Positions 2,800 through 63,543 of a DNA stretch of 64,000 nucleotides are shown piece by piece (position 1 is the first letter of the stretch; the number at the start of each line of letters is the position of its first letter). Made by a program: the position numbers and the translations under genes. This DNA is from an uncultured Gammaproteobacteria bacterium (GTDB lineage Bacteria; Patescibacteriota; Microgenomatia; UBA1406; HO2-37-13b), in contig CAYPSA010000006.1 in assembly GCA_964413645.1 (NCBI GenBank), forward strand, positions 6,123 to 70,122. Reading direction: 5' to 3'. The notes beneath the pieces were generated by a model that saw nothing but the letters and a program-made list of their open reading frames with translations, made no database searches and was not told where the DNA came from.

Positions 2800-2938
2800 A
2801 AAAATATCTTATGCGAGTCATATCGTTGTGAATATAGAAACTTATATAGTATAAATAAAGAAAAAATGGCCCTTGCATATTTAATTATTATTTTCTTTGC
2901 TTTATATAGACTAGATGATACCTGCTATACTAATTCAT

Positions 2939-3325
2939 ATGGAAATTAATCTAATAGCCGCATTCGTTGCGTCGTTTACTGGTTTAATTCTAGGTTTCAT
3001 GTGGTACTCAGTATTATTTGCTCGTTCTTGGCAGAAACTTGCTGGTGTAAGCGATAATCAAATGAAAACAGGTATGCCAAAACGTGCGCTTGGCTCTTAC
3101 CTACTCACACTTGTTATGGCATTAAATTTGGCCGCATTTATTGGATCAAATCAATCTGCGTCGTTTGGTCTTTTTGCAGGCTTTGCGGCAGGGTTTGGTT
3201 GGGTGGCAATGGCATTTGGAAGTAATTATTTATTTGAACATCGACCCCTAAAATTATTTTTCATTAATGCAGGATACAACATAATCCTGCTTTCCGTAAT
3301 GGGGCTTATTATTGGCTATTTCTAA
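2939..3325 (+). CDS. DUF1761-like small membrane protein
   Basis: MEINLIAAFVASFTGLILGFMWYSVLFARSWQKLAG resembles the DUF1761 family. Start moved to ATG 2939 because TGcTATACT (2923-2931) lies 7 nt upstream. Confidence 0.6.
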   Translation: MEINLIAAFVASFTGLILGFMWYSVLFARSWQKLAGVSDNQMKTGMPKRALGSYLLTLVMALNLAAFIGSNQSASFGLFAGFAAGFGWVAMAFGSNYLFEHRPLKLFFINAGYNIILLSVMGLIIGYF

Positions 3326-3331
3326 TAAATT

Positions 3332-3832
3332 ATGAGTAAATTAATCAACTGTATATGGTTTTCCAATAATAACGGAGAAGAAGCGGCGCACTATTATATC
3401 GATACTTTTAATGCGGCTCCGGGTGACCACGCCGCAACAATGGGGGATATTACAAAATCTCCTCAAGCGAGTGAAGAAGTTTCTGGTATACCCGCAGGTT
3501 CCGTTATGACAGCCGAATGCGAGCTCGATGGTATAAATTTTATGTTTCTAAATGCTGGTCCCGTTGATCAATTTAAATTAAACGGAGCAACGTCTTATAT
3601 TATTGAATGCGAAACGCAAGAAGAAATTGATTTTTTCTGGGAAAAATTATCTGCAGTTCCGCAAGCCGAGCAGTGTGGATGGTGCACTGATAAATTCGGA
3701 ATAACCTGGCAGGTTGTACCTAGAATTCTAGATGAAATGATGCGCGATCCTTCAAAAGCAGAAGCGGTAACGGCTGTTTTCATGCCCATGAAAAAACTTA
3801 ATCTTGAAGCAATTCGAAAAGCTGGAGAATAA
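3332..3832 (+). CDS. VOC/glyoxalase-superfamily protein (PhnB / 3-demethylubiquinone-9 3-methyltransferase-domain type)
   Basis: The N-terminal CIWF..NGEEAAHYY and C-terminal DKFGITWQVVP motifs are typical of this family. Confidence 0.6.
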   Translation: MSKLINCIWFSNNNGEEAAHYYIDTFNAAPGDHAATMGDITKSPQASEEVSGIPAGSVMTAECELDGINFMFLNAGPVDQFKLNGATSYIIECETQEEIDFFWEKLSAVPQAEQCGWCTDKFGITWQVVPRILDEMMRDPSKAEAVTAVFMPMKKLNLEAIRKAGE

Positions 3833-3928
3833 ATTGATCCCCTGTTCAACGTGAACGTACCAGATAGTTTGCAGACCACATCTTTGTTACAATAAAAACC
3901 ACTAATTAAGTGTACCGCAAAAAAATAT

Positions 3929-4849
3929 ATGAAAGCAGTAATCGCAAATGGCTATGGAGCGCCCGAAGTGTTGAGTGTTCAAAATGTTGAAAAGCCAATA
4001 CCAAAGAAAGGCGAGATTTTAATTAAAGTTAAAGCGGCTAGTTTGAATTCCGGGGACGTACGGATTCGATCGCTTGACGCTGGTGCAGGGTTAAAAGGTG
4101 TTATTGCAAAAACAATTATTCGTTTGCTTGTGGGAATTACAAAACCAAAACGAGTCCCTGGCATGGTGTTAGCTGGTGAAGTTGTAGCACTCGGTGACGG
4201 TGTGGATCAGTTTAAAATAGGCGATCAAGTGTTTGCAATGGCAGGATTTAGCTTTGGAGCATTCGGCGAGTATTGTGCTTTGCCTATTAAGCGAGCAATT
4301 GCACTAAAGCCAAAAAATGCTAGTTTTGAAGAAGCGAGCGCATTGCCCTTTGGTGGTAATACCGCATTATATTTTTTACGTAAAGCTGGTGCGGGTAAAA
4401 ATAAGCGCGTATTAATTTATGGATCTACGGGTGCAGTTGGATCATCAGCAGTTCAAGTTGCGAAATACTTGGGCTGTACTGTTACCGCCGTGTGCAGTAA
4501 AGATGGAATGAATTTATCAAAAACATTGGGAGCAAGCAAAGTATATGATTACCGAGCGACCGGACTCAATGAGATAGAAGGAACATTCGACTTAGTTTTT
4601 GATGCAGTGGGTAAAATTTCTAAAACAAAAGCAAAACATCTAATTTCTGTAAACGGCCAATACATTTCTGTTGAAGGTCTTGATGTTGCTAAGGAAAGTT
4701 CTGCGGATTTAGAACAACTTGCGAAAATGTTTGATAGTGGAAAATTAGTCGCGGTGATCGACAAAACATTTAAGTTAGAAGAAATTGTTGAAGCAAATAG
4801 ATATGTCGACACCGGGCACAAAAAAGGGAACGTAGTTTTAAAAATTTAA
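3929..4849 (+). CDS. NAD(P)-dependent quinone oxidoreductase / zinc-type alcohol dehydrogenase family (MDR)
   Basis: GroES-like N-terminus (GEILIKVKAASLNSGD) and Rossmann motif (YGSTGAVGSSAVQVAK). 306 aa. Confidence 0.75.
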   Translation: MKAVIANGYGAPEVLSVQNVEKPIPKKGEILIKVKAASLNSGDVRIRSLDAGAGLKGVIAKTIIRLLVGITKPKRVPGMVLAGEVVALGDGVDQFKIGDQVFAMAGFSFGAFGEYCALPIKRAIALKPKNASFEEASALPFGGNTALYFLRKAGAGKNKRVLIYGSTGAVGSSAVQVAKYLGCTVTAVCSKDGMNLSKTLGASKVYDYRATGLNEIEGTFDLVFDAVGKISKTKAKHLISVNGQYISVEGLDVAKESSADLEQLAKMFDSGKLVAVIDKTFKLEEIVEANRYVDTGHKKGNVVLKI

Positions 4850-6062: not shown

Positions 6063-6467
6063 ATGAACAAATTGGATCAACTTGTAAAAAATGGATTTCG
6101 AATTACAAAACCACGCCAGGCAATACTTGATGTGCTGGTTTCACACCCTGTAACGGTTCAAGAAATTTATGAATCATTAGAAAAAAAAGGCATTCATATT
6201 GATCTTACTTCCGTATATCGTTCACTTGAATTGTTTGTGGAACTTAAACTTGTGCAAGTTATCGAACTTGGAGAAGGTAAAAAACGATACGAATTGCTTA
6301 ACACCGACAATCATCATCACCATGTGATTTGTAATACTTGCGGAGTTATTGAAGATGTATCTATTGAACAGGAAAAAGAAATCCTTAAACATGTTACAAC
6401 GAAATCTCATTTTAAGATAGATACCCATACGTTAGAATTTTTTGGACAATGTCAGAATTGTCAGTGA
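6063..6467 (+). CDS. zur: Fur-family metalloregulator, probably Zur
   Basis: Winged-helix N-terminus, HHHHVIC..C and CxxC (CQNC) metal sites. It lies directly upstream of the zinc ABC transporter genes. Confidence 0.8.
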   Translation: MNKLDQLVKNGFRITKPRQAILDVLVSHPVTVQEIYESLEKKGIHIDLTSVYRSLELFVELKLVQVIELGEGKKRYELLNTDNHHHHVICNTCGVIEDVSIEQEKEILKHVTTKSHFKIDTHTLEFFGQCQNCQ

Positions 6468-8928: not shown

Positions 8929-8961
8929 TGTGTCAGGTTCAGATTCTGATAGAATCTATAT

Positions 8962-9510
8962 ATGAGCAATCTTCTGAAAATTTTATTACATAGTAACTAC
9001 CTAAATGTATTTGCTTATTCATTATTTGGTCCATTGTATGCTTTATACGTTGTCCAAGTTGGTGGCTCTGCTTTTCATGTCGGTGCAACATGGAGCATGT
9101 ATATGTTTATCACAGGAATATCTATGATTTACTTATCTAAAATCGCAGATAAGTCAGATAGAAACAAGAAGGTCATGATAGTATCCGGGTATTTTATTCT
9201 TTCAATCGGAGCTTTTATGTTTGCATTTGTGCAAAACACAACACAGATATACTTGGTACAAATGCTTAATGCTTTTGGAGTGGGTTTACTGAATCCTTCA
9301 TGGAAAGCAATGTATTCCAAGCTTGAAGACAAAGGTAAGGAAGCGCAAGAATGGGCTTCATTCGACGGTGGAAATACCATCCTAACCGCAATGGCTGCTT
9401 TAATGGGTGGACTTTTTATTACCTATTTCTCGTTTCAATCATTATTCCTTATTATCAGTGCGATCCAATTATTCGCAGCTCTTATATCTCTGAAAATTCT
9501 TCAGAAGTAA
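8962..9510 (+). CDS. Half-size (6-TM) MFS-like membrane protein
   Basis: 182 aa with about 6 TM helices and an MFS-like loop (SKIADKSDRNKK). TAGAAT lies 6 nt upstream of the ATG. Confidence 0.5.
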   Translation: MSNLLKILLHSNYLNVFAYSLFGPLYALYVVQVGGSAFHVGATWSMYMFITGISMIYLSKIADKSDRNKKVMIVSGYFILSIGAFMFAFVQNTTQIYLVQMLNAFGVGLLNPSWKAMYSKLEDKGKEAQEWASFDGGNTILTAMAALMGGLFITYFSFQSLFLIISAIQLFAALISLKILQK

Positions 9511-9590
9511 TCGTAACTTACATCTGGAAAGTAAATTGAAGCGGCTATGTTTTTGCGTTCTCTCAGCATTTTTATATAGTAGTATTTAAT

Positions 9591-10190
9591 ATGGCGCAGT
9601 CATATAAACTCAACATAAAGCCTATTATCGGGATCGGCACTTTTTTATTAATTGGTATCGTTTCATATCTATATCAAAGACCAGTATCACTTTTTCATAA
9701 TGAAATCGACGCTATTCAAATGGAAGAAGTTCGTTTTAAAAACATGAAATTGAAACTTCCCCTCGAAAGCGAAAAAATAAACGATGATTACAGATTTGGA
9801 CTATTCTACACGTTTGGCATTGGTAAAGATCAATTATTGCAGAGCCAGTCGCCTATAGATTTCTCCGTTACTATTGCACAGCGTGATTACGACGACATTA
9901 CTGATGCTGAATTTCAAGAGTCGACAATGGCGTATATTAATGATGATCACATGTATCATCAGAGTGTATGTGGTACCGATAACGTTAAAGAACTCCTGGA
10001 AATTTCTAATGCATCACTGGAAGGCTGGCAGTTTGAAGCTGATTGCTTGGGTGAGGTATATACGTATTATATTAATGGACCAGCACAGCAACTCTATACA
10101 ATAGCCATGAAAATTGAACCAAAAGCTCAAAAGAAGATGTTATATCGCGATATTATAGATGCAACTATTAAAAGTATTGAGTTTGAATAG
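9591..10190 (+). CDS. Hypothetical membrane-anchored protein
   Basis: 199-aa ORF with an N-terminal TM helix. No recognised domain. Confidence 0.5.
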   Translation: MAQSYKLNIKPIIGIGTFLLIGIVSYLYQRPVSLFHNEIDAIQMEEVRFKNMKLKLPLESEKINDDYRFGLFYTFGIGKDQLLQSQSPIDFSVTIAQRDYDDITDAEFQESTMAYINDDHMYHQSVCGTDNVKELLEISNASLEGWQFEADCLGEVYTYYINGPAQQLYTIAMKIEPKAQKKMLYRDIIDATIKSIEFE

Positions 10191-10250
10191 ATAATAATTC
10201 AGATAATCCAATAACGAATAATACGATGTGGCCTCTGCTATACTTTTCTC

Positions 10251-10829
10251 ATGAAAGAAACTTTTGCCATTGTAGCTACGATCTTTGCAATAGTCGGTAA
10301 TATTTCATATTTTCGTGATGTTCTTTCCAAAAGAGTTAAGCCGCATCCATACACGTGGTTTGTATGGTCAATAGTTTCGGGGGTGACATTCTTCGGACAG
10401 CTGGTAAAAGGGGCAGGTATTGGCGCGCTTCCCACCGGCGTTGCTGAATCGTTTACCATAATGATTTTTCTATTTTCTCTGCAATATGGATTTAAACACA
10501 TAACAAAAACCGATACATACTTTCTTATTTTTGCATTACTTGGCCTAATCCCTTGGATTATGTTGAAGGATCCAACTGTTTCGATTATTATTGTCGTTAC
10601 GATCGATGTTATCGCCTTTATTCCAACATTACGCAAAACGAAATTGCATCCCTCAACAGAAGCTCCCGCTTTATATAGTATGAATGTTGCTCGGCATATT
10701 TTGACGTTATTCTCTTTACAAACATATAATATCGCCACAACACTCCATTCATTTGTCATGATTATTATTAATTCATACATGACTTTCTTAATTGTGCACC
10801 GGCCAAAAAGTAGCAGTAAGAAAAAGTAG
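10251..10829 (+). CDS. Polytopic membrane protein, function unknown
   Basis: 192 aa with 6-7 TM helices. TGcTATACT lies 6 nt upstream of the ATG. The mirrored minus-strand ORF 10238..10780 is judged spurious. Confidence 0.65.
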   Translation: MKETFAIVATIFAIVGNISYFRDVLSKRVKPHPYTWFVWSIVSGVTFFGQLVKGAGIGALPTGVAESFTIMIFLFSLQYGFKHITKTDTYFLIFALLGLIPWIMLKDPTVSIIIVVTIDVIAFIPTLRKTKLHPSTEAPALYSMNVARHILTLFSLQTYNIATTLHSFVMIIINSYMTFLIVHRPKSSSKKK

Positions 10830-10867
10830 AATAATAACGTTGTCTACGCTTTTGGTACAATACAAGC

Positions 10868-11209
10868 ATGTCCCTAGAAATTTTTGATGATGCAGGTGAT
10901 TTTTTTGAAGATTTATATGAAAATCTTTTTGAGCGAAAAAAACTTCGAACTAAAGATCAGGCTACACTCCTTGCTCGAACAAAGCACGCATATCATTACA
11001 CTGAAAGAGTAGAGGGTGTTTTAAAAATGATCTTCGGATTTTCTATTTTTATTTCTGCGGTTGTTGCTACCGTGTGGGGCTTTTCAAGTGTAGGGGAAAT
11101 TGTAAAAGCATTGGTTTCGAGTTGGTATGGAAGAGTAGCATTGAGCATGATTGGAATCAGTTATTTCCTTAACGGATTGTGGCGCTACATTCACGCGCGA
11201 ACTGCCTAG
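10868..11209 (+). CDS. Hypothetical small membrane protein
   Basis: 113 aa with an acidic N-terminus and 2 TM helices. TACAAT lies 6 nt upstream of the ATG. Confidence 0.5.
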   Translation: MSLEIFDDAGDFFEDLYENLFERKKLRTKDQATLLARTKHAYHYTERVEGVLKMIFGFSIFISAVVATVWGFSSVGEIVKALVSSWYGRVALSMIGISYFLNGLWRYIHARTA

Positions 11210-11269: not shown

Positions 11270-11298
11270 TTGACGCATAAATATTTACCCTCTATAAT
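11270..11298 (+). promoter_or_regulatory. Sigma-70-type promoter of mscL (TTGACG-17 nt-TATAAT)
   Basis: TTGACG at 11270-11275 and TATAAT at 11293-11298. The ATG follows 8 nt downstream with no Shine-Dalgarno. Confidence 0.6.
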
Positions 11299-11306
11299 CA
11301 CGGTAT

Positions 11307-11606
11307 ATGAAAGGATTCTTAGAATTTATTCGTGAACAAGGAGTCGTTGGTTTAGCTGTGGGGTTTATTCTTGGCGGAGCCGTTTCAAAGCTCGTAACCG
11401 CACTTGTTACCGACATCATTAGCCCGATCTTATCTTTAGGAATGAATAATGTTAAGAATCTTAAAGAAGCATATGTTCAAGTCGGTGCTGCAAAAATTAT
11501 GTGGGGCGACTTCTTGAATGTTTCAATTGATTTTTTGGTTATCGCTTGCGTAGTGTACTTCGGTGTTAAGCTTCTCAAGTTAGATAAACTTGATAAGAAG
11601 AAGTAA
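11307..11606 (+). CDS. mscL: Large-conductance mechanosensitive channel (short form)
   Basis: MKGFLEFIREQGVVGLAVGFILGGAVSKLVTALVTDIISP matches the MscL N-terminus and TM1. 99 aa. Confidence 0.8.
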   Translation: MKGFLEFIREQGVVGLAVGFILGGAVSKLVTALVTDIISPILSLGMNNVKNLKEAYVQVGAAKIMWGDFLNVSIDFLVIACVVYFGVKLLKLDKLDKKK

Positions 11607-12368: not shown

Positions 12369-13895
12369 TTATTTTTCCATATCAAACACTTCATCGACTC
12401 GAATTTGCGCAACAAATTCAGGAACGTGGGAGACCATAATCATCATTCCTTTGTACTCGCTTAGCGCTTGCGCAATTACTGGTAGATGACGAAAGTTAAT
12501 GTGATTTGTCGGTTCATCAAGAATCAACAGTCCTGGTTTTAATAAAACTAATCGTGCAAATGAAACAAGTCCCTTCTGGCCTTCCGACAGCATACCGATT
12601 TTAGAGTGAATGTGTTGGGAGGTAATTAAGAAGCCTGCGGCAACAGATCGAATTTCTTGTTCAATAATTTTGCCGTCGGCTGCAAGCATTGCTTTAGTAA
12701 AGGTTGCATATACCGTATCATTAAAATCGAGCGATGAAAAATCCTGGGCGTATGAGCCGACTCTAACTCCAGAGGTCATACAGATATCCTCGGCAGTACC
12801 ATCAACGAGAGATCTAATAAAACTGCTTTTGCCAATGCCATTTGGTCCTTTAATAAGAACGTGTTTTCCTTTTTCTAAAAATATACTTTTCTGTTTCGTA
12901 ATAATTTGATGATCTTGCATCACTTTAATCGATGAAATTCTAAGTTCTTCGTTTACTAAATTTTCCTGCGGAGGAATGGTAAATGGTCGAATTGTTTTAT
13001 CTTCTCGACGAATATCTACCTTTGCTTCTTCCATTTCTTCCGCTTTATTTCTCATTTTTTTAGCAACGAGTCGCATGCGGCCTCCTTTATTTGCAAAAAA
13101 GTTTGCACTATCTTTATTTTCTTGAATCACGCGTTCCATTTGTGCATTTTGTCTTCGATCGCGTTCTAGTCGAAGTTGAATTTGTTCAAGCACATCATTG
13201 TAGTCACCTGCGTATTGTTCGACTTTTTTAGTAAAGTTGTCTAAATATAAAACGCCCTCGGTAAATGCATTTAAAAATTCCGCATCGTGTGAAATTACAA
13301 TAACGCTTTTGTCGTAATAAATAAGAAATTCAGTTAAATGATCAATTCCCGTGTGATCAAGATTATTCGTAGGTTCATCAAGTAGTAACAAATCAGGGTC
13401 TTGAATAAGTGCGGCTGCCAAAAGCAATCTGGCTTGTTGTCCTCCGGAAAACTGGTGGATTATTTTTTCAAGAGGTGCGACTAGATTTACGACCTGTAAC
13501 ACATCGCTAATCTTTTTCAGCAATTCATGCTTTTGCACATTTGGTATATATTGTGAAAAGAAGTCTTGAACAGAAAGATCTTTATTGGCAGGGTCCATTA
13601 CTTGGTGAGCCGTTGCAACAACCAATCGTTTATCAATAGAAATCGTTCCAGATGTTGGCTGCAATGATCCTACAAGGAGTTTAAACAGAGTACTCTTGCC
13701 TGCACCATTTTGGCCCATGAGCGCAATTTTCATGCCTTTTCGCACAGAAAAGCTAGCCTCGTCAATAATGGTCTTATCGTGTCCGAAGTCAAAACAAACT
13801 TGCGCGAATCTAATAATAGTTTCCAGAACTACTATTTTACCATATCGGCTATGGCTAAGTAGATTGTTGTATACTATTAATATGCCACTTGTCAT
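12369..13895 (-). CDS. ABC-F family ATPase (two ABC cassettes, no TM domain)
   Basis: Cassette 1 has GQNGAGKST, LSGGQQARLLLA and LLLLDEPTNNLD. Cassette 2 has GPNGIGKSS, LSEGQKGLVSFA and LLILDEPTNHIN. A charged linker separates them. The start is uncertain because ATG 13895 overlaps the divergent kinase gene by 14 nt. Confidence 0.85.
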   Translation of the reverse strand: MTSGILIVYNNLLSHSRYGKIVVLETIIRFAQVCFDFGHDKTIIDEASFSVRKGMKIALMGQNGAGKSTLFKLLVGSLQPTSGTISIDKRLVVATAHQVMDPANKDLSVQDFFSQYIPNVQKHELLKKISDVLQVVNLVAPLEKIIHQFSGGQQARLLLAAALIQDPDLLLLDEPTNNLDHTGIDHLTEFLIYYDKSVIVISHDAEFLNAFTEGVLYLDNFTKKVEQYAGDYNDVLEQIQLRLERDRRQNAQMERVIQENKDSANFFANKGGRMRLVAKKMRNKAEEMEEAKVDIRREDKTIRPFTIPPQENLVNEELRISSIKVMQDHQIITKQKSIFLEKGKHVLIKGPNGIGKSSFIRSLVDGTAEDICMTSGVRVGSYAQDFSSLDFNDTVYATFTKAMLAADGKIIEQEIRSVAAGFLITSQHIHSKIGMLSEGQKGLVSFARLVLLKPGLLILDEPTNHINFRHLPVIAQALSEYKGMMIMVSHVPEFVAQIRVDEVFDMEK

Positions 13896-18625: not shown

Positions 18626-18655
18626 CTGTATTTGGCTCGCGTGCTATACTATAGT

Positions 18656-20942: not shown

Positions 20943-20946
20943 GAGT

Positions 20947-49905: not shown

Positions 49906-49957
49906 GGTATGATTATAGCACTTACAACGATCGTACAGATCTCACTAACCTGTCTAT

Positions 49958-52776: not shown

Positions 52777-55719
52777 TTATTGCCACGCTTCACAGTTTAT
52801 TTTAAAAGGGCACCAGCTACACCAAGGCCCAGTATGTGCGTCAAACTTCCCTACTTTAATTTTAGAAACCACATCTTCAATAGTACCGATAACAACATCT
52901 AAATCTTTCTGAGTCTTTGTAAATGAAACCTTCTTGTTTTCTTGAAAGTAAATGTAGCTTACTGTAATTTTATCTAATGGTTTTCCAAACAAGCTCGGGT
53001 CAGTTGCTGCACGGGCGTACAACGAAAGTTGCATTTCCTTTTTAAAATCTGCATCGCTTGGAACTTTGCCCGTTTTATAATCGATGATTTCGATAGTTCC
53101 ATTTTGCAAATAATCAATTCGATCAATTTTTCCAGAAATATATATTCCTTCTTCAATTTTTATTTTGAACGACTGTTCAAGTCCTGCGATCTTAATTTCT
53201 TTTGAGTGGTATGTATTGTAGAATTCACGTAAAATCCGTTCTCCTTCCTGTTTCATTTCTTGCTCATATTTTTTTGAACCATATCCAATAGGAACCCAAT
53301 TCGTTTTATATAAATCTAAGAGCGTGGTAAGTGTTGGTTGTAGATTTTGCATGTGTTGTTGGTAAAAGAATTGCAGCGCAGCATGAATTGAAGTTCCAAA
53401 AGATGCAGCAGATCCGGCAGCAGTTGGAATTTTTAAAATATATTGGTATTTGTATTTGAGCGGACAAGTAAGATATGTTTGTATCTGTGAAAAAGAAAAA
53501 GCACGGGGGATATGTTTTACTTTTATTTCTTTAGTTGGTTTTTTATCTTCTGTTAATTTTCCAAATGAATTTCGTAAGCTTGGCAAATCAAAAATTGCAA
53601 GTTGCCCTTTGGAATCCTGTGCTGATACGAGCGCTTTTTGAATACCGTTTTCCCCAACTGCTTCAAAAACATACGGAGAAATTTTGTGTTCACGCTTCCC
53701 TTCTCCGTAAAAACTTGAGCCCGACATAAATAATCTTTTTTTTGCACGAGTCATTCCTACGTAAAATAATCGACGTTCTTCTTGCAAGTGTGCATTTCCT
53801 ACAGGTAAAACTTCTTTGATTAAATCATCGGGTAACGGAATTTGTTCTTTACGATCGTATGTAGGAAATCGACCCGATGTAAGATTTATCATAAAAACCG
53901 TATCAAACTCTAAGCCCTTAGCAGCATGAATAGTTGAGATAACTACTGCATTTTGACTTTCAAAATCATCTTCATCCACTGGAGTGCTGTCGCCCAGCTC
54001 CATACTTAAATTTATAAAATCTACAACCGCAATGACCGAAGCATCTTCTTCTTGCAATTCGTACGCTTTTAATTTGTTAAAAAACTTAGAAATATTTTTG
54101 GCTCGGTCTTCTTCCTTTTCAGTTGTGAAGTGGGAAATTTTCGCAAGGTATCCACTGTTTTCAAGAAAGTAAAAAAGTAATTGACCCGCAGTATCTTTTT
54201 TCATGCGAGCAATACTCTGATTAATGAGCGTAACAAGTTTATAAAGGTGCTCTTTTGAATCCTTTCGCATTGAAAAGATGTAGGGTTTGTAATGAATGTT
54301 TTCCTCACTTGAAAGATCACTATACGAAAAGCCAAGATATATAAGTGCGCTTTCGAATAAAGATAGTCCAATTTTTCGACTGAATGAAACTAGCCGAGCC
54401 AAGTCAATTTCATGAATATTGAAAACTTCCATTTGCGTAATCCGATAAAACGCTGCAGAATTATTGATGTCATATAAAACTTCCAAGTATGCAATGAGCT
54501 CTTTTATTTCCGGCTGGCGAAGAAGCATTCCCGGACCAGGAAGTTGAAATGGAATCCCCTTTTTTAACAATGCTCGAATAAATGGCTCACTGTGGCTATT
54601 TGCACGGGTAAGAATTGCAAAGTCGCTGTAGGTGAGTGTTGAGTTTTCTTTTTTCGTTTTAATTATTGTCTTTACTACTTGTTCAGCCTCAGATGTCACA
54701 AAAGGATGGATTTGGAATTGGGGACTTGTTTCGCTTGTACCGATTTTAGAAATAAGATTCTTGGAAATTTTAAGGCGAGCTTCCAACGTATCGTGATCGT
54801 TGTTTTTGATTAGCTTATACGATGTGTCTAAAATAGACTGCGTACTTCTAAAGTTTTCAGTTAATACAATTTGTTTTGATTTTTTATAATCTTTGGTGAA
54901 TGTGAGAATGTTGGAAATAGACGCCCCGCGGAACTTATAAATGCTTTGATTATCGTCACCAATGACAGTGAGATTTGGTTTATTTTTTGTAGGAGCAAGA
55001 AGTTTAATAAGCTCGTACTGTGCTATATTAGTATCCTGAAATTCATCGACTAGAATATATTTAAATTTCTTTTGATACTGCGCAAGAATGTTCTTTCTCT
55101 TTCTGAATAATGTTAGAGTGTATGAGATTAAATCGGCAAAATCCATGATATTGTGAGTGCGTTTCAATTCCTCGAAAGCAGCGTATGCTTGAGCAAGTTC
55201 CACATATTTTTCTTTGTCTTCTTTTTGTTTTGCAGCAAACACTCTATAAGCAGCAGGAGATACGTCTTCGTCAGCAAGTCGTGAGAAATGCTGAAGCAGC
55301 CCAAATAAAAATTTATTTGGATTAGAAAGAGGTTTGAAATATTTTAAATTTAAATTCCCAATATTCCGGCGCAAAAACATAATTGCCTGAGCTTGTGTGT
55401 GGAGCTTATACGCCGGCGACATTCCAATATGAATAATTTCATCGCGCAGGATTTTATCTGCAAATGCATGAAACGTACTAATGTTTGTTTGAAAAAAGCC
55501 AATGGGCAAGGCCTTATCTACCCGATCTTCCATTTCTTTAGCAGCCTTTTCGGTGAAGGTAAGCGCAAGAATTTCATCGGGCTTCGCGAGTTTTTTTTCA
55601 ATTAAGTGTTTTATTTTTTCAACCAATACTGTCGTCTTTCCAGTTCCTGCTCCGGCGATAAGGAGTAGTGGGCCTTTAGTGTGTTTGACTGCCTTAATTT
55701 GTGTGGGAGTAAGTTGCAT
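52777..55719 (-). CDS. UvrD-type helicase fused to a PD-(D/E)XK nuclease with a Cas4/AddB-like 4-Cys cluster
   Basis: GAGTGKT and VDEFQDTN motifs. The C-terminus has TCPLKYKY, GKIDRID, EIIDYKTGK, QLSLY and CSWCPFKINC. TATAAT lies 8 nt upstream of the ATG. Confidence 0.85.
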   Translation of the reverse strand: MQLTPTQIKAVKHTKGPLLLIAGAGTGKTTVLVEKIKHLIEKKLAKPDEILALTFTEKAAKEMEDRVDKALPIGFFQTNISTFHAFADKILRDEIIHIGMSPAYKLHTQAQAIMFLRRNIGNLNLKYFKPLSNPNKFLFGLLQHFSRLADEDVSPAAYRVFAAKQKEDKEKYVELAQAYAAFEELKRTHNIMDFADLISYTLTLFRKRKNILAQYQKKFKYILVDEFQDTNIAQYELIKLLAPTKNKPNLTVIGDDNQSIYKFRGASISNILTFTKDYKKSKQIVLTENFRSTQSILDTSYKLIKNNDHDTLEARLKISKNLISKIGTSETSPQFQIHPFVTSEAEQVVKTIIKTKKENSTLTYSDFAILTRANSHSEPFIRALLKKGIPFQLPGPGMLLRQPEIKELIAYLEVLYDINNSAAFYRITQMEVFNIHEIDLARLVSFSRKIGLSLFESALIYLGFSYSDLSSEENIHYKPYIFSMRKDSKEHLYKLVTLINQSIARMKKDTAGQLLFYFLENSGYLAKISHFTTEKEEDRAKNISKFFNKLKAYELQEEDASVIAVVDFINLSMELGDSTPVDEDDFESQNAVVISTIHAAKGLEFDTVFMINLTSGRFPTYDRKEQIPLPDDLIKEVLPVGNAHLQEERRLFYVGMTRAKKRLFMSGSSFYGEGKREHKISPYVFEAVGENGIQKALVSAQDSKGQLAIFDLPSLRNSFGKLTEDKKPTKEIKVKHIPRAFSFSQIQTYLTCPLKYKYQYILKIPTAAGSAASFGTSIHAALQFFYQQHMQNLQPTLTTLLDLYKTNWVPIGYGSKKYEQEMKQEGERILREFYNTYHSKEIKIAGLEQSFKIKIEEGIYISGKIDRIDYLQNGTIEIIDYKTGKVPSDADFKKEMQLSLYARAATDPSLFGKPLDKITVSYIYFQENKKVSFTKTQKDLDVVIGTIEDVVSKIKVGKFDAHTGPWCSWCPFKINCEAWQ

Positions 55720-55779
55720 GGTACCCCATTATATGCTATAATACGTGCCTATTGGAAGGAAATTAAAGATAAAATAAAT

Positions 55780-56056: not shown

Positions 56057-56383
56057 ATGCGCGTAGAAAATATATCCGTAGAGCCAAGAAAAAAGTTTTC
56101 AGACTGTGCTACCTGTCCCCAAGCTCAAGACGTTGCTTTAAAAGTAATTCGTGAAGTAAGAGTGCGTCCGACTGATCTGATACAGATTTCTGGTTATGTC
56201 TACAAAGGTGATCAACCAACCAGTTTAGCGATAGCATGTGAGCGCATTCCGGGTAATACATGTCAAATGGTTATGGGAGGTAGTATTCAAGTGGTAAATG
56301 AGCGAGATGGGGTACCGCAAGAAATGGCGATATATGACCGGGCAGTTATTTGTCCTGCACTTTCTACTCCACAAAATCCTTAA
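56057..56383 (+). CDS. Small 4-Cys protein, unknown family (paralog 2)
   Basis: 108 aa: [10 protein letters not shown]...ACER...ICPAL. It starts 1 nt after the paralog 1 stop, and its 3' end overlaps the rpoD 3' end by 20 nt. Confidence 0.55.
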
Positions 56384-57455
56384 GTTTTCGTGCGCGGGTG
56401 GGGTGACGCAATTTTCGAATTGCTTTTGCTTCAATTTGTCGAATACGTTCACGGGTTACATTAAATTCTTTTCCAACATCTTCAAGCGTTTTGCTTTTTC
56501 CATCATCTAATCCAAATCGCATAATAAGTACTTTTCTCTCGCGCTCGGACAACGTATCAAGAACCTCATTTAAGTAATCACGCAAAAATTCTTTAGAAAC
56601 AGTGTCATATAATGTTGGCTGATCAGTATCTGCAACAAATTGCTCAAGCGTCGTTTCCTTATCATCTCCAATAGGAGTAGAAAGTGATTTTGGATGCTGG
56701 GAAATTTTGATTAAATTCTCAACTTCTTTTACAGAAATTTCCATTTCTTTGGCAACTTCTTCATTTGAAGGATCGCGGCCAAGTTTTTGAATAAGTTTTC
56801 GTTGAATTTTGTAGTATCGATTAATATTATCGACCATATGAACTGGAATACGAATGGTCCGTGATTGATCGGCAATAGCACGTGTAATAGCTTGTCGAAT
56901 CCACCAGGTGGCATATGTAGAGAATTTGTATCCTCGGCGCCAGTCATATTTTTCTACACCTTTAATAAGTCCCTGATTACCTTCTTGAATCAAATCCAAA
57001 AATGATAAGCGACGACCTAAGTATTTTTTTGCAATAGAAACAACCAAACGTAAGTTTGATTTAATGAGTTTTTCACGAGCATCAAGGTCTTTCTTTTCGT
57101 ATGCTTTAGCAAGTTTAATTTCATCTTCGAATTGAAGAAGTGGGTATTGACCAATTTCTTTCAAATACATCTTGATAGGATCTAGCGATTCACCGTGACG
57201 AATAGTAACGAGCTGTTTCAGCTCTCGCTCTAGCTCCTCAATGGTTTTTTTTGCATCTTCTTCATCGCGAGTAGAAACATTTTCAAAAATATCGATCTTT
57301 TTTTTCATTGACTTATCAAATAAGTCATCAATTTCTTCGATATGGTGTTCAGGGTCGGGGTAAACAAAGAAGATATCATCAAGAACCAAAAAGCCGTTTT
57401 CTTCTCCCTGCTTAAGAAGTTCTTTGATTGATTTAGGAATTTTTTGCAAAGACAT
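56364..57455 (-). CDS. rpoD: Primary RNA polymerase sigma factor (sigma-70 family)
   Basis: [13 protein letters not shown] (region 2.4) and [20 protein letters not shown] (region 4.2). Confidence 0.9.
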
Positions 57456-57579: not shown

Positions 57580-59370
57580 TTACAGTACTAGAAGCTTTTT
57601 TTCCACTGCAGATAATTCATCGGTAAGTTTTTGAATCAATGAATTATCGGAATCGGTATTTTCTGAACTTGTTTCGGGTGTATTAATAAGCTCTTTTAGA
57701 CGACGCTTGAGCGCAATTCTCTTAAATTCGTGCAAAAATCTGTCAAAATCGCCAGCTACCGTTGCTACGGTGTCACTTTCGAAAAGAAATAGACTATTGT
57801 AAGAACTAATCAATTCGTTGGGTAATAGACGGCTAAATTCCTGTGGATCAATTGTATCCCCGGTGTATTCCAATAACTTTTCATAAATTTTACGATACGA
57901 TCCGATTGAAAAATCTTCAGGAAGAATAAATCCTTCAAGTCGCCCTAAAACTTCACGTGGTTTTTCATTTTGAAAAACCATTGATAAAATATATTGCTCA
58001 ATAATCTCATGTCTTTTTTTGGCGCCGCCCAGAGGGCTCTGCCCGGCGGGCTTTTCTTCAACAAACCGCTTGTTGGTTTTGGATATTTGACCTTTCAAAA
58101 AATCGCGTAAACTCGAGTCGACCGATGCTTCATCGACTTCTAAAATCTGGCTTAACCGACGGATGTAATGTGACTTAATTATTGGATTTTCTATGTGTGC
58201 AACAAATGGAATAATGACATCGGCAATTTCACGTTTAGCAAATGCATCAATTTTAGGATAGCGAGACAATGTGTTTTCGATAATAAAATCGTAAATATTT
58301 ATTGGGTTATGCAAAACTTTTTTGTAACCAATTGGATTATTTTTAAAAGCCTCATCGGGGTCTTTTCCATCTTTTGAAACTGCAACTTCAATTTTAAAGT
58401 CAAGTGCTTGCGCATCTTTAATGGCTCGTTTTATTGTTTCACTTCCCGAAAAATCACTATCGAGGGCAAGGATAATATGTTTACATAAACGACTCAGGAG
58501 AATTAACTGATCCTTTGTTACAGCAGAACCTTTAATGGCGACAGCATTTTCAATACCATTAGCAAAGCACGAAATCATGTCGAATTCTCCTTCAACCAAT
58601 ACAACTGATTCAGTTTTTCGAATTGCATCGCGACTAATATCAATGCCAAATAGAGTTTCCCGTTTATGATAAATGTGAGTTTCGGGGGTATTTACGTATT
58701 TAGCTCCCTCTACGTCACCCATTGCCCGACCCGAAAAACCTAAAATATTTCCTCGCGCGTCTTTTAATGGAAAAACAATTCGCCCTCGAAAACGATCATA
58801 ATAAGAACCTTTACTGCCTTTTAATGCAAGTCCAACTGCTTCCAAATCTTGTGCAGAATATTTTTTCTTTGCCATAAAAGTTAACAAAGAATCCCACGAA
58901 TTTGGAGCGTACCCGAGCGAGAATGTTTTGATTAATTTATCTGAAACTTTTCGCTCTGTTAAATATTCCCGCGCTCCTGCGGCAACCGCATGATTTTCAA
59001 GTAAATAGTTGTAGTACTTTGCTGCAAGGGCATTAATGGTAAATAATCTCTCTTTTTGTTTCCATGCATTGTCTTCAATTGCCGTTGTTACGAGTTTTGT
59101 ATTTGTCTTTAAGGCAAGTTCCTTGAGCGCTTCGTAAAACGTAATATTTTCCCATTTCATGAAAAACGTAATCACGTCTCCCCCATCTTGACACGCGCCA
59201 AAACAATGCCAAATTTGCCGATCGGGGGAAATTACAAAAGAGGGAGTTTTTTCGTTGTGGAAAGGGCAGTTGGCTTTATAATTTCGCCCTGCCTTTTTGA
59301 GCGTAATGAATGTGCTTAGGAATTCTACGATATCGAGCTTTGATTTGATTTCTGCAATTGCGCCATCCAT
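57580..59370 (-). CDS. dnaG: DNA primase
   Basis: Zinc ribbon CPFHNEKTPSF...C..C and TOPRIM EGEFD. ATG 59370 (MDGAIAEIK) has TGcTATACT 10 nt upstream. Confidence 0.9.
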   Translation of the reverse strand: MDGAIAEIKSKLDIVEFLSTFITLKKAGRNYKANCPFHNEKTPSFVISPDRQIWHCFGACQDGGDVITFFMKWENITFYEALKELALKTNTKLVTTAIEDNAWKQKERLFTINALAAKYYNYLLENHAVAAGAREYLTERKVSDKLIKTFSLGYAPNSWDSLLTFMAKKKYSAQDLEAVGLALKGSKGSYYDRFRGRIVFPLKDARGNILGFSGRAMGDVEGAKYVNTPETHIYHKRETLFGIDISRDAIRKTESVVLVEGEFDMISCFANGIENAVAIKGSAVTKDQLILLSRLCKHIILALDSDFSGSETIKRAIKDAQALDFKIEVAVSKDGKDPDEAFKNNPIGYKKVLHNPINIYDFIIENTLSRYPKIDAFAKREIADVIIPFVAHIENPIIKSHYIRRLSQILEVDEASVDSSLRDFLKGQISKTNKRFVEEKPAGQSPLGGAKKRHEIIEQYILSMVFQNEKPREVLGRLEGFILPEDFSIGSYRKIYEKLLEYTGDTIDPQEFSRLLPNELISSYNSLFLFESDTVATVAGDFDRFLHEFKRIALKRRLKELINTPETSSENTDSDNSLIQKLTDELSAVEKKLLVL

Positions 59371-59437
59371 GGTGAGAAAGAGTATAGCACATGTTTCTAC
59401 TTGAGCATAGAAAGAGTAATTGATAGTATTTAAATAC

Positions 59438-60607
59438 ATGAACAACGAGCAGAAGATATATGATGTAGTAATTGTAGGTGCTGGATATGCTGGTTTGTAC
59501 TTAGCTCAGCTACTTTCGCAACAATATTCAGTATGTCTAGTAGAGAAAAAGAAGGACTTGGTAGGAGAGCTTAACACAACGGGTTCTACTCTTTTTAACC
59601 AGAAAGATGATATTTTTACTCTCTTTAACATTCCAGAAGAGCTTATATTGACAAAGTATAGCTCGATAAGTATCCAGTCTAAGATAAATAAGGTTACAAC
59701 TGAAAAGAATATGTTTCCATGGGTATTACTAGATATCCCTGCTTTAAAAAAGTATCTCGTGAATAATATTCACAAGTCTGCCTACATTATGAAAGGGAGT
59801 GAGGTAATAGATATCATTAAGCATAAAGACTCTTATGAAGGGGTTACGGTTCAAAATATTGATACTAGAGAAGAAGTTCAAATAAAGGGGAAAATGATCG
59901 TGGATGCTTCGGGTTCAAGTGATGCTTTGGCGACTAAAACACATATGAGGATACCTCGATTTAAATCGCAATGTTATCAGGTTGATGCAGATATAGATAT
60001 TGATTTTGATGATTCACATGTGCAAACATTTATGGGGCACCCTTTTTGTGAAAAAGGCTATGCATACATTTTCCCCATAAGTAAGAAGCGCGTTCGGATT
60101 GGTACCAACTCTATTTACAGTCTGACGGGAAATAAGGCTGGTATTGAAGATCTTTTCGCAGACTTTCTACGATATTTGAATGCCACCCCTACCAACATTG
60201 ATAATGAGGTAAAGATAGAAGTTTACACGGGAGGTGTAAATATAAACAATTCAAAAAATAATTTATTAATAATTGGAGACGCTGCGGGATATATATCACC
60301 ATTTGTTGGTGAAGGAATTCGTTTTGCATTCCATTCAGCGGACATTGCTTCTAAACTAGTTGCTTCGTATTTAGAATCTGGGAATAAGAGTTCACTAGAA
60401 CAATTCTATAGTCAGTGGGAAAAACGCTTTGGGCGCACGTTTAAGTTATCGTATTATTTGCAGTATATTTTATTGCATATTAATGATAATCTTATAGATA
60501 GTTTCGTGTATAAATTACAGAAAGTATCGAGAAAACACCCTTTGTTGTTGTTTAAATTTATTGCTACTAAGAATACTTTCATCGATTTTGTACGAATCAT
60601 AGTATGA
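59438..60607 (+). CDS. Geranylgeranyl-reductase-family FAD-dependent oxidoreductase
   Basis: YDVVIVGAGYAGL FAD fold and IGDAAGYISPFVGEGI motif. Confidence 0.6.
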   Translation: MNNEQKIYDVVIVGAGYAGLYLAQLLSQQYSVCLVEKKKDLVGELNTTGSTLFNQKDDIFTLFNIPEELILTKYSSISIQSKINKVTTEKNMFPWVLLDIPALKKYLVNNIHKSAYIMKGSEVIDIIKHKDSYEGVTVQNIDTREEVQIKGKMIVDASGSSDALATKTHMRIPRFKSQCYQVDADIDIDFDDSHVQTFMGHPFCEKGYAYIFPISKKRVRIGTNSIYSLTGNKAGIEDLFADFLRYLNATPTNIDNEVKIEVYTGGVNINNSKNNLLIIGDAAGYISPFVGEGIRFAFHSADIASKLVASYLESGNKSSLEQFYSQWEKRFGRTFKLSYYLQYILLHINDNLIDSFVYKLQKVSRKHPLLLFKFIATKNTFIDFVRIIV

Positions 60608-62335: not shown

Positions 62336-62346
62336 AGTTGCGAGGG

Positions 62347-62433
62347 CGGTGGGGGCGAGATTCGAACTCGCGGTAACATTGCTGCTACACTGGTTTTCGA
62401 AACCAGCTCATTCGACCACTCTGACACCCCACC
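62347..62433 (-). tRNA. tRNA-Ser (anticodon CGA)
   Basis: Hand-folded. Acceptor GGTGGGG/CCCCACC, anticodon arm CTGGT-TTCGAAA-ACCAG, long variable arm GTAGCA-GCAA-TGTTAC, T-arm GCGAG-TTCGAAT-CTCGC and discriminator G. No encoded CCA. Confidence 0.85.
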
Positions 62434-62454
62434 AGTGGGTATATTGTATAACGC

Positions 62455-63516
62455 TTAGGCCGACATATCAATTACAAGGTGGGGGAGTTTGCCGAGCTTA
62501 ATTTTTTCTTCATTCGTTTTGGTAATAATCGTTTGATACTTCCCTATTAGGTCAATTACGTATTCCCTATTAATATCATCAAGTTCTGAGAAAATGTCAT
62601 CAAGAAGTAATAATGGACGAATAGTAAAAGTCTCTTCGTAGAGCTTGAGCTCGTTAACGATAATCCAAAAAAGTGCAAGTCGTTGCTCGGACCGACTTCC
62701 GAATTGATGCACATTCTTTTTTTCCGGATTTTTTTGGAGTAAGTTTTTTTGAATAATTTCGTATGAATCTCGTTGCGGTCCAACTCGAGTGGATTTAAGT
62801 AAATATTGTTTTTCAAATGTTTCTTCGAGAGTTTTTTTTGACATTTCTTTTTTTGAATATTCCAGTTTAAATTCATGATTAGTAACCTGAACTCCAGTAT
62901 TGAGTTTTTCTACAAACCATTCGCGTTTTGCACAAATATAGTTTGCCTGTTCGATTAAGTAATCATCCCAAAACGACAACTCATCACGAAGTTTATTTAC
63001 ATCATGCACTTTTTCTAAAATTTTATTTCTCTTACGAAGTGCAGTTTCATAATTGTGTAATCTTTTTTTATATTCAATATCTAATTTTGAAAGAATGCGA
63101 TCAATGAATTTTCTGCGACTTGCCGGATCGCCATCAATTATATGTACAAGTTTCGGAGTAAAGAAAACGGAGGGGATTGTTTGCTTGGAATATTCAAAAA
63201 GGCGTTTTTGTGTTTTGTTAATACTAAAGACTTTTTTAACAGCGACTCCCCTTTCCAAATAAATTCGAAAAAGTGTTCCGGCATCTTCTTGAATGATTTC
63301 TCCCTCAATAGTCGAGACGATTTGCCCAAGTGAAATTAGCTCGTCTTGTTTTTCATCTTTAATTCCACTTCCCGTCATTAGTAAATAAATTGATTCAAGG
63401 ATATTTGTTTTTCCAACAGAATTGGGACCGGTAATAATGGTGACATTTTTATGGAGCTCATTCTGCTTTTGAGAGATGTTGCGGAAGTTAAGTAATGAGA
63501 TTTTTGTTAGAAGCAT
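62455..63516 (-). CDS. recF: DNA replication and repair protein RecF
   Basis: LLNFRN...ITGPNSVGKTNILE Walker A and the SMC-like signature region. TATAAT lies 6 nt upstream of the ATG. Confidence 0.9.
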   Translation of the reverse strand: MLLTKISLLNFRNISQKQNELHKNVTIITGPNSVGKTNILESIYLLMTGSGIKDEKQDELISLGQIVSTIEGEIIQEDAGTLFRIYLERGVAVKKVFSINKTQKRLFEYSKQTIPSVFFTPKLVHIIDGDPASRRKFIDRILSKLDIEYKKRLHNYETALRKRNKILEKVHDVNKLRDELSFWDDYLIEQANYICAKREWFVEKLNTGVQVTNHEFKLEYSKKEMSKKTLEETFEKQYLLKSTRVGPQRDSYEIIQKNLLQKNPEKKNVHQFGSRSEQRLALFWIIVNELKLYEETFTIRPLLLLDDIFSELDDINREYVIDLIGKYQTIITKTNEEKIKLGKLPHLVIDMSA

Positions 63517-63543
63517 TTATGTATTATACAGGAGAGTATCTAT

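Follow-up and report, generated by a model that had tools for sequence, protein, structure and literature searches.

σ70-type promoters set against start codons point to widespread leaderless mRNAs in a Microgenomates bacterium

How is translation initiated in a bacterium whose genes almost entirely lack Shine–Dalgarno (SD) sequences? This question is raised by a 64-kb stretch of contig CAYPSA010000006.1 (positions 6,123–70,122; hereafter the window, in whose own numbering all coordinates are given), in which a hexamer resembling the −10 element of σ70 promoters lies a short, nearly constant distance upstream of many start codons. The initial annotation of the window had listed 19 such hexamer–ATG pairs and interpreted them as a sign of widespread leaderless mRNAs. 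Our positional, promoter, conservation and start-codon tests all favour this interpretation. We regard it as highly probable that σ70 promoters abut coding sequences in this organism, that many of its mRNAs are leaderless, and that initiation proceeds without SD pairing.

The window comes from a bacterium of the Candidate Phyla Radiation (CPR; Patescibacteria), in the Microgenomates/Roizmanbacteria group. The closest named homologues of its TIM protein and of an APC permease belong to the Microgenomates group and to Candidatus Roizmanbacteria, and the gene order of the window recurs in a GTDB representative titled Candidatus Roizmanbacteria. For comparison, we used two orthologous loci with 77–84% DNA identity to the window (L001, which is CAYQYZ010000003.1, and L002) and related loci with 68–78% protein identity (L004–L007). 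L001 is titled 'uncultured Gammaproteobacteria bacterium', but it shares about 20 kb of synteny with the window and encodes a 96% identical PNPase, and its taxonomic label looks wrong. Syntenic loci carry rpoD with σ70 regions 1.2, 2, 3 and 4, corresponding to window positions 56364–57455.

Spacing of hexamers and start codons

We defined a −10-like hexamer as TAnnnT with at most one mismatch to TATAAT, and the gap as the number of nucleotides between the hexamer and the ATG. The 19 hexamers and ATGs of the initial annotation all lie where it placed them, with the gaps it gave. To avoid circularity, we then took the first ATG of each long non-overlapping open reading frame (ORF), with no start relocated (n = 66). 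In this set, the hexamer stood exactly 6 nt from the ATG in nine cases and 10 nt from it in six, against a background of about 0.4 per gap. Hexamers at gaps of 5–8 nt preceded 15.3% of the ATGs that open long ORFs, compared with 1.8% of all other ATGs in the window. When starts were curated (66 genes, or about 67 after adding the gene at 13882), ten genes had a gap of 6 nt (Poisson P = 6 × 10⁻⁹) and 16 of 66 had a gap of 5–8 nt, where 2.9 were expected (P = 9 × 10⁻⁸). As the initial annotation had predicted, the distances form a sharp peak, at 5–8 nt, with low SD scores, and they differ from those of shuffled upstream regions: in 2000 dinucleotide-preserving shuffles of positions −40 to −1, the count at these gaps averaged 2.97 ± 1.68, with a maximum of 9, and none of the 2000 reached 16.

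The peak also appears when gene calls are left out altogether. On both strands, 13 of the 19 occurrences of hexamer-N6-ATG mark the beginning of an ORF with 80 or more codons, whereas at most other gaps only 1–4 of 7–22 occurrences do so, the exception being a gap of 10 nt (8 of 18). In the final tally of about 67 genes, 17 have a gap of 5–8 nt, with a mode of 6, and 11 have a gap of 9–14 nt. All 17 genes of the former group begin with ATG, and they make up about 24–25% of all genes and about 35% of those that are not translationally coupled (coupled genes being those at most 8 nt after a same-strand neighbour). These results confirm that the spacing between hexamer and ATG is a real pattern, far above chance.

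Seven genes in the window share a gap of 10 nt (6449, 9591, 24764, 35654, 35857, 44592 and 59370; P = 1 × 10⁻⁵), and this spacing is kept in orthologues; we saw no sequence common to the 10-nt spacers of these genes. We considered a discrete gap-10 class of promoters and rejected it, because relatives' gene calls show no such peak; these sites are treated here as part of a short-leader shoulder. The initial annotation had read its list as a sign of widespread leaderless mRNAs. We favour this for gaps of 5–8 nt, but the four listed sites with gaps of 10–11 nt (hexamers at 35841, 38575 and 59386) or with a variable gap are better described as belonging to genes with very short leaders; gaps of 10–11 nt would give leaders of 3–5 nt.

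The hexamers carry the features of σ70 promoters

Start-proximal hexamers differ from the rest in what accompanies them. The dinucleotide-plus-spacer TGn precedes 9 of 27 start-proximal hexamers but only 26 of the 592 other hexamers in the window (p = 5 × 10⁻⁶), and a −35 element with at least five of six matches lies 16–18 nt away from 5 of the 27 (18.5%) compared with 2.6% of the others. The two types are mutually exclusive, in that promoters with TGn have a poor −35 and promoters with a perfect TTGACA lack TGn, which is a classical signature of σ70 promoter classes. Promoters of the σ70 kind here are either an extended −10 (TGnTATAMT) or a TTGACA-N16–18-TATAAT pair. The sequence TGCTATAMT occurs six times in the window, against 1.3 expected and with none of 100 shuffles reaching six, and all copies are intergenic and sit shortly before the start of a gene. 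Only five of these copies are at genes listed in the initial annotation, which had counted six such promoters there; the sixth, at 55734–55742 on the plus strand, is a promoter of the opposite strand. TGn as such is present at 8 of the 19 listed promoters.

The distribution of the hexamer among genes also fits a promoter. According to the logic of GeneMarkS-2, a promoter avoids operon-internal genes, whereas a ribosome-binding motif does not (PMC6028130). A hexamer at a gap of 5–8 nt was found at 1 of 23 coupled genes and at 15 of 43 non-coupled genes (Fisher p = 0.006), a depletion that indicates a promoter rather than a ribosome site. The single exception, at 22522, is the sole case of such a gap at a gene within 8 nt of its neighbour. 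By contrast with these start-centred tests, a generic two-hexamer promoter scan of the window gave no enrichment (64 matches compared with 70.7 in shuffles), and terminator-like sites in the window were not enriched either. Such scans are uninformative because the DNA is AT-rich, and the signal therefore lies in the position of the motif relative to starts and not in its count.

Conservation in relatives and rarity in SD-using loci

Hexamers and their spacings are retained in relatives where the surrounding DNA is not. In L001 and L002, both are kept amid scrambled flanks at 28111 (where this covers the −35 as well as the −10, each with its spacing), hrcA, rpsO, ftsK and murJ, and L007 keeps hexamer and spacing at 10251, 15344, crtI, 22522 and ydjM. 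In L004–L006, the hexamer is kept near the starts of tpiA, the helicase gene (where the gap changes from 8 to 6 nt), dnaG and murJ (from 10 to 7 nt). Using the collection's own gene calls for four related loci, we found a gap of 6 nt at 14 of 83 genes. A like pattern, with almost no SD, was seen in loci of the complete Roizmanbacteria genome CP065004, of another Microgenomates genome, of a syntenic relative and of a 'Patescibacteria group' genome. A Saccharimonadales locus, on the other hand, has clear SDs and few start-proximal promoters.

As a control set, we used 43 metagenome loci, each 8 kb or longer, in which the same permease family is encoded and which have no taxonomic labels. Hexamers at gaps of 5–8 nt preceded 1.2% of genes in loci that use SDs, no more than expected by chance, and 12.7% in loci poor in SDs (p = 1 × 10⁻⁶). 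Across the 43 loci, their frequency was anticorrelated with SD use (rho = −0.51, p = 5 × 10⁻⁴) and showed no significant correlation with G+C content. One locus that is as AT-rich as the window and uses SDs, L040, has no such hexamer at any of its 19 genes. The contrast between SD-using and SD-poor loci thus provides the method with a negative control, and it shows the trait to be lineage-specific.

Start codons next to the hexamers

We compared the adjacent ATGs with protein profiles and independent gene calls. Profile positions 1–6 fall on residues 1–6 for MscL, YdjM, TIM, GIY-YIG, RecF-like, HrcA, Ham1, CrtI, DnaG and the UvrD-like helicase. In relatives, proteins are conserved from the ATG onward, and conservation of the DNA falls off upstream of the hexamer. 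For the relocated starts 15344 and 22522, gene calls made independently in related contigs predict proteins of equal length, as they do for rpsT (86 amino acids), murJ (542 amino acids) and the helicase (980 amino acids). The start at 22522 moreover abolishes a 104-nt overlap with the upstream gene.

Starting from the hexamers, the initial annotation had relocated five starts of the ORF map, and for four of them (15344, 18656, 22522 and 59370) orthologue calls or the coordinates of profile hidden Markov models agree; the fifth, 2939, is compatible with the DUF1761 profile but is not proven. The starts that we judge to be mis-set in the ORF map are accordingly 2915, 15326, 18632, 22411 and 59445. 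The 35-codon gene that had been proposed at 25403 was borne out as well. L007 contains an independently called 35-codon orthologue (17830–17937), with 25 of 35 residues identical to the product of 25403–25510 and with 10 synonymous codon changes compared with 10 mostly conservative ones. On the strength of this conserved orthologue we accept 25403 as a real small gene. One case with a gap of 6 nt had been missed both by the initial annotation and by the greedy ORF map: TATACT at 13870–13875 before the ATG at 13882 of a P-loop NTPase gene.

Automatic calls in relatives use GTG or ATG codons that are located upstream, within the conserved promoter, at L007 12236 (crtI, GTG), L007 18776 (ydjM) and L004 488 (dnaG). 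Judging from these sequences, start misannotation is probably systematic in this lineage.

Shine–Dalgarno use in the window is confined to rpsT

The initial annotation had noted that no SD lies between hexamer and ATG, and this applies to nearly the whole window. We computed pairing energies for positions −22 to −3 with the canonical anti-SD; upstream regions pair with it as their own shuffles do (mean −1.40 compared with −1.33 kcal/mol; Mann–Whitney p = 0.94), and worse than internal coding sequence does. We inspected all strong SD-like hexamers in the window, and only one, AAGGAGGTGA at 44673–44682, precedes a real start. This is the SD of rpsT on the plus strand (44630–44690), which is transcribed from a candidate TATACT promoter at 44630–44635 with a leader of about 45 nt. 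It has a pairing energy of −12.9 kcal/mol, lies 5 nt before the ATG at 44688 and makes rpsT the sole SD-led gene of about 67. The start of rpsT had initially been placed at 44679, but that position is a GTG inside the SD.

The rpsT SD is kept in L001, L002, L004, L006, L012 and L013. Together with the leader of about 45 nt, it is nearly unchanged in relatives with about 80% identity in the adjacent DNA. We rejected the leader as a structured regulatory RNA, as its folding z score of +1.4 means less structure than in shuffles; the SD is more likely to be open, in a leader that is predicted to be unstructured. The window contains no 16S rRNA gene, and an Rfam scan of it returned only a tRNA-Ser. 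The 16S anti-SD may be retained in this organism, given that AAGGAGGTGA is conserved at rpsT and that anti-SD loss in CPR is reported to be concentrated in a subgroup of Parcubacteria (PMC9297842). Outside the window, rplL in L016 has GGGGGTGA and a surface-protein gene in L011 has AAGGAGGT.

The statement in the initial annotation that two modes of initiation coexist is correct in that rpsT has an SD, but it understates the situation, because SD is found at one of about 67 genes and a third mode prevails in the rest. This third mode is SD-less initiation at leadered or coupled genes, and most leadered and internal genes are indeed without an SD. In the 52 genes that have no start-proximal −10, a small sample, A makes up about 50% of positions −7 to −3, G is depleted and T occupies position −1 in 73%. 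The A-rich stretch at −7 to −3 with T at −1, noted in L009 as well, may be a Kozak-like, SD-independent signal for start selection. A context that appears, from its sequence, to be of a different kind is present in another CPR lineage: in L015, a Peregrinibacteria-like contig with 52% GC, upstream regions are pyrimidine-rich (C/T tracts) and lack an SD, also throughout the ATP synthase operon.

Proposed mechanism and alternative explanations

We propose that, in a large share of transcription units, a σ70-type promoter is placed directly against the coding sequence. RNA polymerase usually starts about 7 nt after the hexamer, with a preference for purines, and +1 is therefore expected on the A of the ATG. 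At genes with a gap of 5–8 nt, transcription would begin on this A or a few nucleotides from it, yielding a leaderless mRNA, and the ribosome would bind the 5'-terminal AUG directly, without SD pairing, on the model of Deinococcus, mycobacteria and E. coli. The roughly 11 genes with a hexamer 9–14 nt upstream would have leaders of about 2–7 nt. The other leadered genes and the operon-internal ones would be initiated without an SD, in a context that is A-rich at −7 to −3 with T at −1, and SD-led initiation would survive only at rpsT.

Several observations weigh against this proposal or narrow it. The placement of +1 on the A of the ATG is carried over from the 6-nt spacing rule of other bacteria, and the 11 promoters with gaps of 9–14 nt are not compatible with a strictly leaderless transcript. 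With relatives' gene calls (four loci), the gap-10 peak is replaced by a broad shoulder at 9–14 nt. Promoter position is not always conserved: mscL is leadered in L007, with its −10 located 29 nt upstream, and the position at yceG varies. Many of the promoters read as leaderless are located 30–60 nt after a gene on the same strand, and no terminator can be recognised between the two. Leaderless mRNAs are therefore probably accompanied by read-through transcripts that carry long 'leaders'. Finally, the analysed DNA consists of the 64-kb window and loci of about 20 kb, not of whole genomes.

Some of these points would also fit promoters that are real but have a +1 1–5 nt before the ATG, or a heterogeneous one, such that mRNAs have very short leaders and a scanning-free 30S pathway picks the AUG by its A/U-rich context. 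The 11 genes that cannot place +1 on the ATG speak for this, as does the T at −1 in 58% of hexamer-bearing genes, which is near the 73% of leadered genes and may point to a context signal read from an RNA that still contains position −1. We nonetheless consider this explanation unlikely. The mode lies at exactly 6 nt (10–11 genes), the spacing at which leaderless systems mapped by experiment have their +1 on the A (PMC3160421, PMC4007540), and gaps in orthologues vary only within 5–8 nt. A different possibility is that the hexamer is not a promoter but a non-SD translation signal in a longer 5' untranslated region, of the type of GeneMarkS-2 'group B'. Some start-selection signal other than the SD must exist in a genome that lacks SDs, and a good number of the sites are found in short spacers between genes of the same strand. 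We give this little credence, however, as the motif matches the σ70 −10 consensus with T−12, A−11 and T−7 invariant, is tied to TGn or to TTGACA at 16–18 nt, and is depleted at the coupled and internal genes, which show the A-rich stretch and T at −1 instead.

Leaderless transcripts would also be illusory if the adjacent ATGs were not the true starts and translation began further downstream, behind ordinary leaders. The hypothetical proteins encoded at 10868, 24872 and 28111 have no profile support against this, but the agreement of profiles with the N termini of nine families (MscL, YdjM, TIM, GIY-YIG, RecF, HrcA, CrtI, DnaG and UvrD-like), together with the onset of protein conservation at the ATG and the drop in DNA conservation upstream of the hexamer, makes it slightly less probable still than a translation signal. 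The most sceptical view is that TANNNT is simply common in AT-rich intergenic DNA and that favourable cases and starts were picked. The window has 37.6% G+C, the two-hexamer scan was no richer than its shuffles, and five starts had been relocated using the motif itself. But the peak persists with unrelocated starts, in the start-agnostic test, against all 2000 shuffles and with relatives' independent gene calls, and equally AT-rich loci that use SDs, such as L040, do not have it. Chance is in our judgement already refuted. The reading of promoters abutting coding sequences and giving largely leaderless mRNAs is the one we retain.

Comparison with known systems

The architecture is a known one, termed 'TA-led' or group C, here in a lineage for which we found no earlier report. 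In Deinococcus-Thermus and Actinobacteria, the accepted sign by which leaderless genes are recognised in sequence is a TANNNT motif with its first T about 12 nt ahead of the start codon (PMC3160421, PMC6028130), and the function of the Deinococcus motif has been validated by differential RNA sequencing and mutagenesis (PMC4007540, PMC12340547). The window resembles the Deinococcus-Thermus arrangement in having TANNNT about 6 nt before the start as the promoter −10, in the share of genes or operons concerned (about 25–35%) and in ATG as the first codon. It differs in that the other genes of Deinococcus-Thermus carry a GGAG ribosome-binding motif, which those of the window do not. Moreover, in the low-GC window the hexamer is a full TATAAT or TATACT, often with TGn, whereas its middle three positions carry little information in the high-GC groups (PMC3160421). 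Function in Deinococcus is known from RNA sequencing and mutagenesis, and the architecture of the window from sequence alone.

Group C of GeneMarkS-2, as found in Actinobacteria, mycobacteria among them, likewise has a Pribnow box 6–8 nt from first-in-operon starts and a dual architecture that can be detected in the sequence (PMC6028130), and in both cases gene finders that expect SDs mis-set starts. Unlike in the window, leadered and internal genes in group C use SD (PMC6028130). Group C is reported to be common in Actinobacteria (90%) and in Deinococcus-Thermus (97%), whereas few Proteobacteria or Firmicutes belong to it (PMC6028130).

With Bacteroidia, the window shares a near absence of SDs, an enrichment of upstream adenines near the start and a single ribosomal-protein gene with a strong SD (PMC7797042, PMC9976891, PMC13000453). 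The promoters of Bacteroidia, however, are not of the σ70 TATAAT type, and their genes are leadered. Their lone SD gene is rpsU, whereas that of the window is rpsT; the SD of rpsT is reminiscent of rpsU as the sole SD gene in Flavobacterium. The rpsU gene encodes bS21, which helps to sequester the anti-SD together with bS18 and bS6, and it is autoregulated through its SD, whereas rpsT encodes S20. We know of no such sequestering mechanism for S20.

Among the σ70 promoters of E. coli and Gram-positive bacteria, TGnTATAAT promoters have a poor −35 and form a class separate from −35/−10 promoters spaced at 17 ± 1 nt. The TGn and −35 classes are mutually exclusive in the window too, but here the discriminator region directly joins the start codon.

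Full-text literature searches found no report of leaderless genes in CPR, Patescibacteria, Saccharibacteria or Microgenomates, and the discussion in a study of CPR ribosomes is confined to certain Parcubacteria that have lost the anti-SD motif (PMC9297842). We tentatively suggest, as a possibility that we hold to be rather less than even, that Microgenomates, and perhaps more of the CPR, initiate translation almost without SD: leaderless initiation in the style of Deinococcus and Actinobacteria would serve about a third of transcription units, Bacteroidia-style choice of AUGs in an A/U-rich context (A at −7 to −3, T at −1) would serve the rest, and rpsT with a handful of others would alone retain a full SD, as a dedicated means of regulation. 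If true, this would be a distinct, previously undescribed regime of initiation, linked to the reduced ribosome of the CPR.

The CPR, or Patescibacteria, are a very large and almost uncultured share of bacterial diversity, with expression signals that are essentially uncharacterised. In annotation, gene finders mis-set starts in such genomes and miss small genes such as the 35-codon gene, and tools for expressing CPR genes should follow the native layout, TGnTATAAT-N6-ATG cassettes rather than SD sites. Our results would also add a lineage to those rich in leaderless genes (Actinobacteria, Deinococcus-Thermus and Chloroflexi). These three are usually grouped in Terrabacteria, and the CPR are placed near Chloroflexota. 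This grouping bears on whether leaderless initiation is ancestral. The lone conserved SD of rpsT, for its part, raises a question of regulation.

Individual promoters

The first group consists of promoters with an extended −10. Among the candidate leaderless ones on the plus strand, TGcTATACT precedes the relocated ATG 2939 of a DUF1761 protein with a gap of 7 nt (2926–2941); the Pfam DUF1761 profile begins at residue 6, and no orthologue of this gene was present in the related loci examined. With a gap of 6 nt, TGaTAGAAT precedes ATG 8962, which opens the N-terminal half of an MFS gene (8950–8964), TGcTATACT precedes ATG 10251 (10239–10253), where L007 keeps hexamer and gap (gTATACTcttaccATG) next to diverged upstream DNA, and TGgTACAAT precedes ATG 10868 (10856–10870). 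The relocated start of crtI, ATG 18656, follows TGcTATACT at a gap of 5 nt (18645–18658), an arrangement also present in L007 as TGcTATACT-N5-ATG, and CrtID position 1 falls on residue 6. At ydjM (ATG 25541; 25529–25543), TGaTATACT at a gap of 6 nt corresponds to TGcTATACT-N6-ATG in L007, and YdjM position 1 falls on residue 1. On the minus strand, TGcTATAAT lies 6 nt before ATG 49905 of tpiA (49903–49920) and is identical in L004, L005 and L006, where the protein is 68–71% identical and the upstream DNA unrelated; TIM position 2 falls on residue 3. Two further extended −10 sites on the minus strand have gaps of 10 nt and would give short leaders: TGgTATACT at murJ (ATG 44592; 44590–44608), kept in L001, L002 and L004 and present as TGcTATAAT with a gap of 7 nt in L006, and TGcTATACT at the relocated start of dnaG (ATG 59370; 59368–59389), kept in L004 and L005, with dnaG profile position 6 on residue 4.

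Other promoters have a −35 element. On the plus strand, mscL (ATG 11307; 11270–11309) has TTGACG, a 17-nt spacer and TATAAT at a gap of 8 nt, which would make it leaderless; the promoter match is 11/12, and MscL position 2 falls on residue 1. An Excalibur-domain protein gene (ATG 24872; 24837–24874) has TTGCAA, 17 nt and TAGAAT at a gap of 6 nt, and the gene at ATG 28111 (28075–28113) has TTGACA, 17 nt and TATCAT at a gap of 7 nt; for the latter, L001 and L002 keep the −35, the −10 and both spacings in diverged spacer and upstream sequence. At ftsK (ATG 38592; 38551–38594), TTGACA, 18 nt and TACAAT at a gap of 11 nt are accompanied by an in-frame TTG at 38586, at a gap of 5 nt. On the minus strand, a putative short-leader promoter absent from the initial list, at ATG 24764 (24762–24804), has TTGACA, 18 nt and TATAAT at a gap of 10 nt, a match of 12/12, with TTGACA-N17-TATAAT in L007. 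The minus-strand hrcA (ATG 35654; 35652–35693) has TTGACA, 17 nt and TAGAAT at a gap of 10 nt. Over the −10 of this promoter of the hrcA-grpE-dnaK-dnaJ operon lies an operator resembling CIRCE (controlling inverted repeat of chaperone expression), the inverted repeat TTAGCAGAA-N9-TAGTGCTAA at 35683–35657 (minus strand), which ends 2 nt before the hrcA ATG and is kept in L001 and L002.

The remaining sites are listed here by their hexamer. At gaps of 5–8 nt on the plus strand, these are TATACT (gap 6) at ATG 13882 (13870–13884), the start of the P-loop NTPase gene 13882–14451; TATAAT (gap 6) at the relocated ATG 15344 of a serine hydrolase (15332–15346), with TATAAT at a gap of 6 nt and a call at the same ATG in L007 and a fitting Pfam profile; TACAAT (gap 6) at ATG 18374 of a GIY-YIG gene (18362–18376), whose profile position 2 falls on residue 3; TATAAT (gap 6) at the relocated ATG 22522 of a polyprenyl synthase (22510–22524), where L007 has ggTATAAT-N6-ATG and an independent call of equal length, 352 amino acids; and TATAAT (gap 5) at ATG 25403 (25392–25510), the 35-codon gene, whose product has a C-terminal hydrophobic segment. 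Minus-strand counterparts are TATAAT (gap 8) at ATG 55719 of a UvrD/PD-(D/E)XK helicase-nuclease (55717–55733), with TATAAT at a gap of 6 nt in L006, TATAAT (gap 6) at ATG 63516 of a recF-like gene (63514–63528), with SMC_N position 2 on residue 3, and, at ATG 15064 of a Ham1-like gene (15062–15084), TATAAT at a gap of 14 nt plus TAAACT at a gap of 6 nt, where the L007 orthologue has TATACT at a gap of 6 nt. Longer gaps are seen for TATAGT (gap 10) at ATG 9591 (9575–9593, plus strand), a short-leader candidate that the initial list lacks; TATACT (gap 11) at ATG 29507 of an SNase-like gene (29505–29524, minus strand), also a short-leader candidate and kept in L001 and L002; TATAAT (gap 10) at ATG 35857 of rpsO (35841–35859, plus strand), a further short-leader candidate, with TTGCAT...TATAAT-N10-ATG in L001 and L002 beside fully diverged upstream DNA; and TATAAT (gap 12) at ATG 41671 of yceG (41669–41689, minus strand), a spacing not kept in relatives. 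TAGAAT (gap 10) at ATG 6449 (6433–6451, plus strand), in a gene that overlaps its upstream neighbour, is a weak and uncertain short-leader candidate.

Neighbouring features

Two intergenic regions have a compact divergent layout. At 55728–55742, putative back-to-back promoters of the helicase gene and of the gene at 55828 have −10 boxes that overlap on opposite strands (ATTATATGCTATAAT), and at 49905–49958 the ATGs of the divergent tpiA and pcrA are 52 nt apart.

A carotenoid-type gene cluster at 18656–23580 (plus strand) comprises crtI (CrtID-like), a phytoene/squalene synthase, a UbiA prenyltransferase, a GT2 glycosyltransferase and the polyprenyl synthase; a lycopene-cyclase-like flavoprotein is encoded apart from it at 59438–60607 (plus strand). 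The cluster is syntenic in L007 and is unusual for organisms thought to be minimal in biosynthesis. The ORF at 8962–9510 covers only the N-terminal half of MFS_1 (positions 7–167 of 347) and the next ORF, 9591–10190, has no Pfam match; judging by sequence, 8962–10190 (plus strand) may be a split or decaying transporter gene.

An ABC-F ATPase gene at 12369–13895 (minus strand) overlaps head-to-head, through its ATG at 13895, with the P-loop NTPase gene 13882–14451 (plus strand). In the version that begins at ATG 13895, the ABC_tran profile starts at residue 45, and there is no canonical in-frame start near where the profile begins. The sole promoter-like arrangement near the start of this gene consists of TAAAAT and, 7 nt further on, an in-frame CTG.

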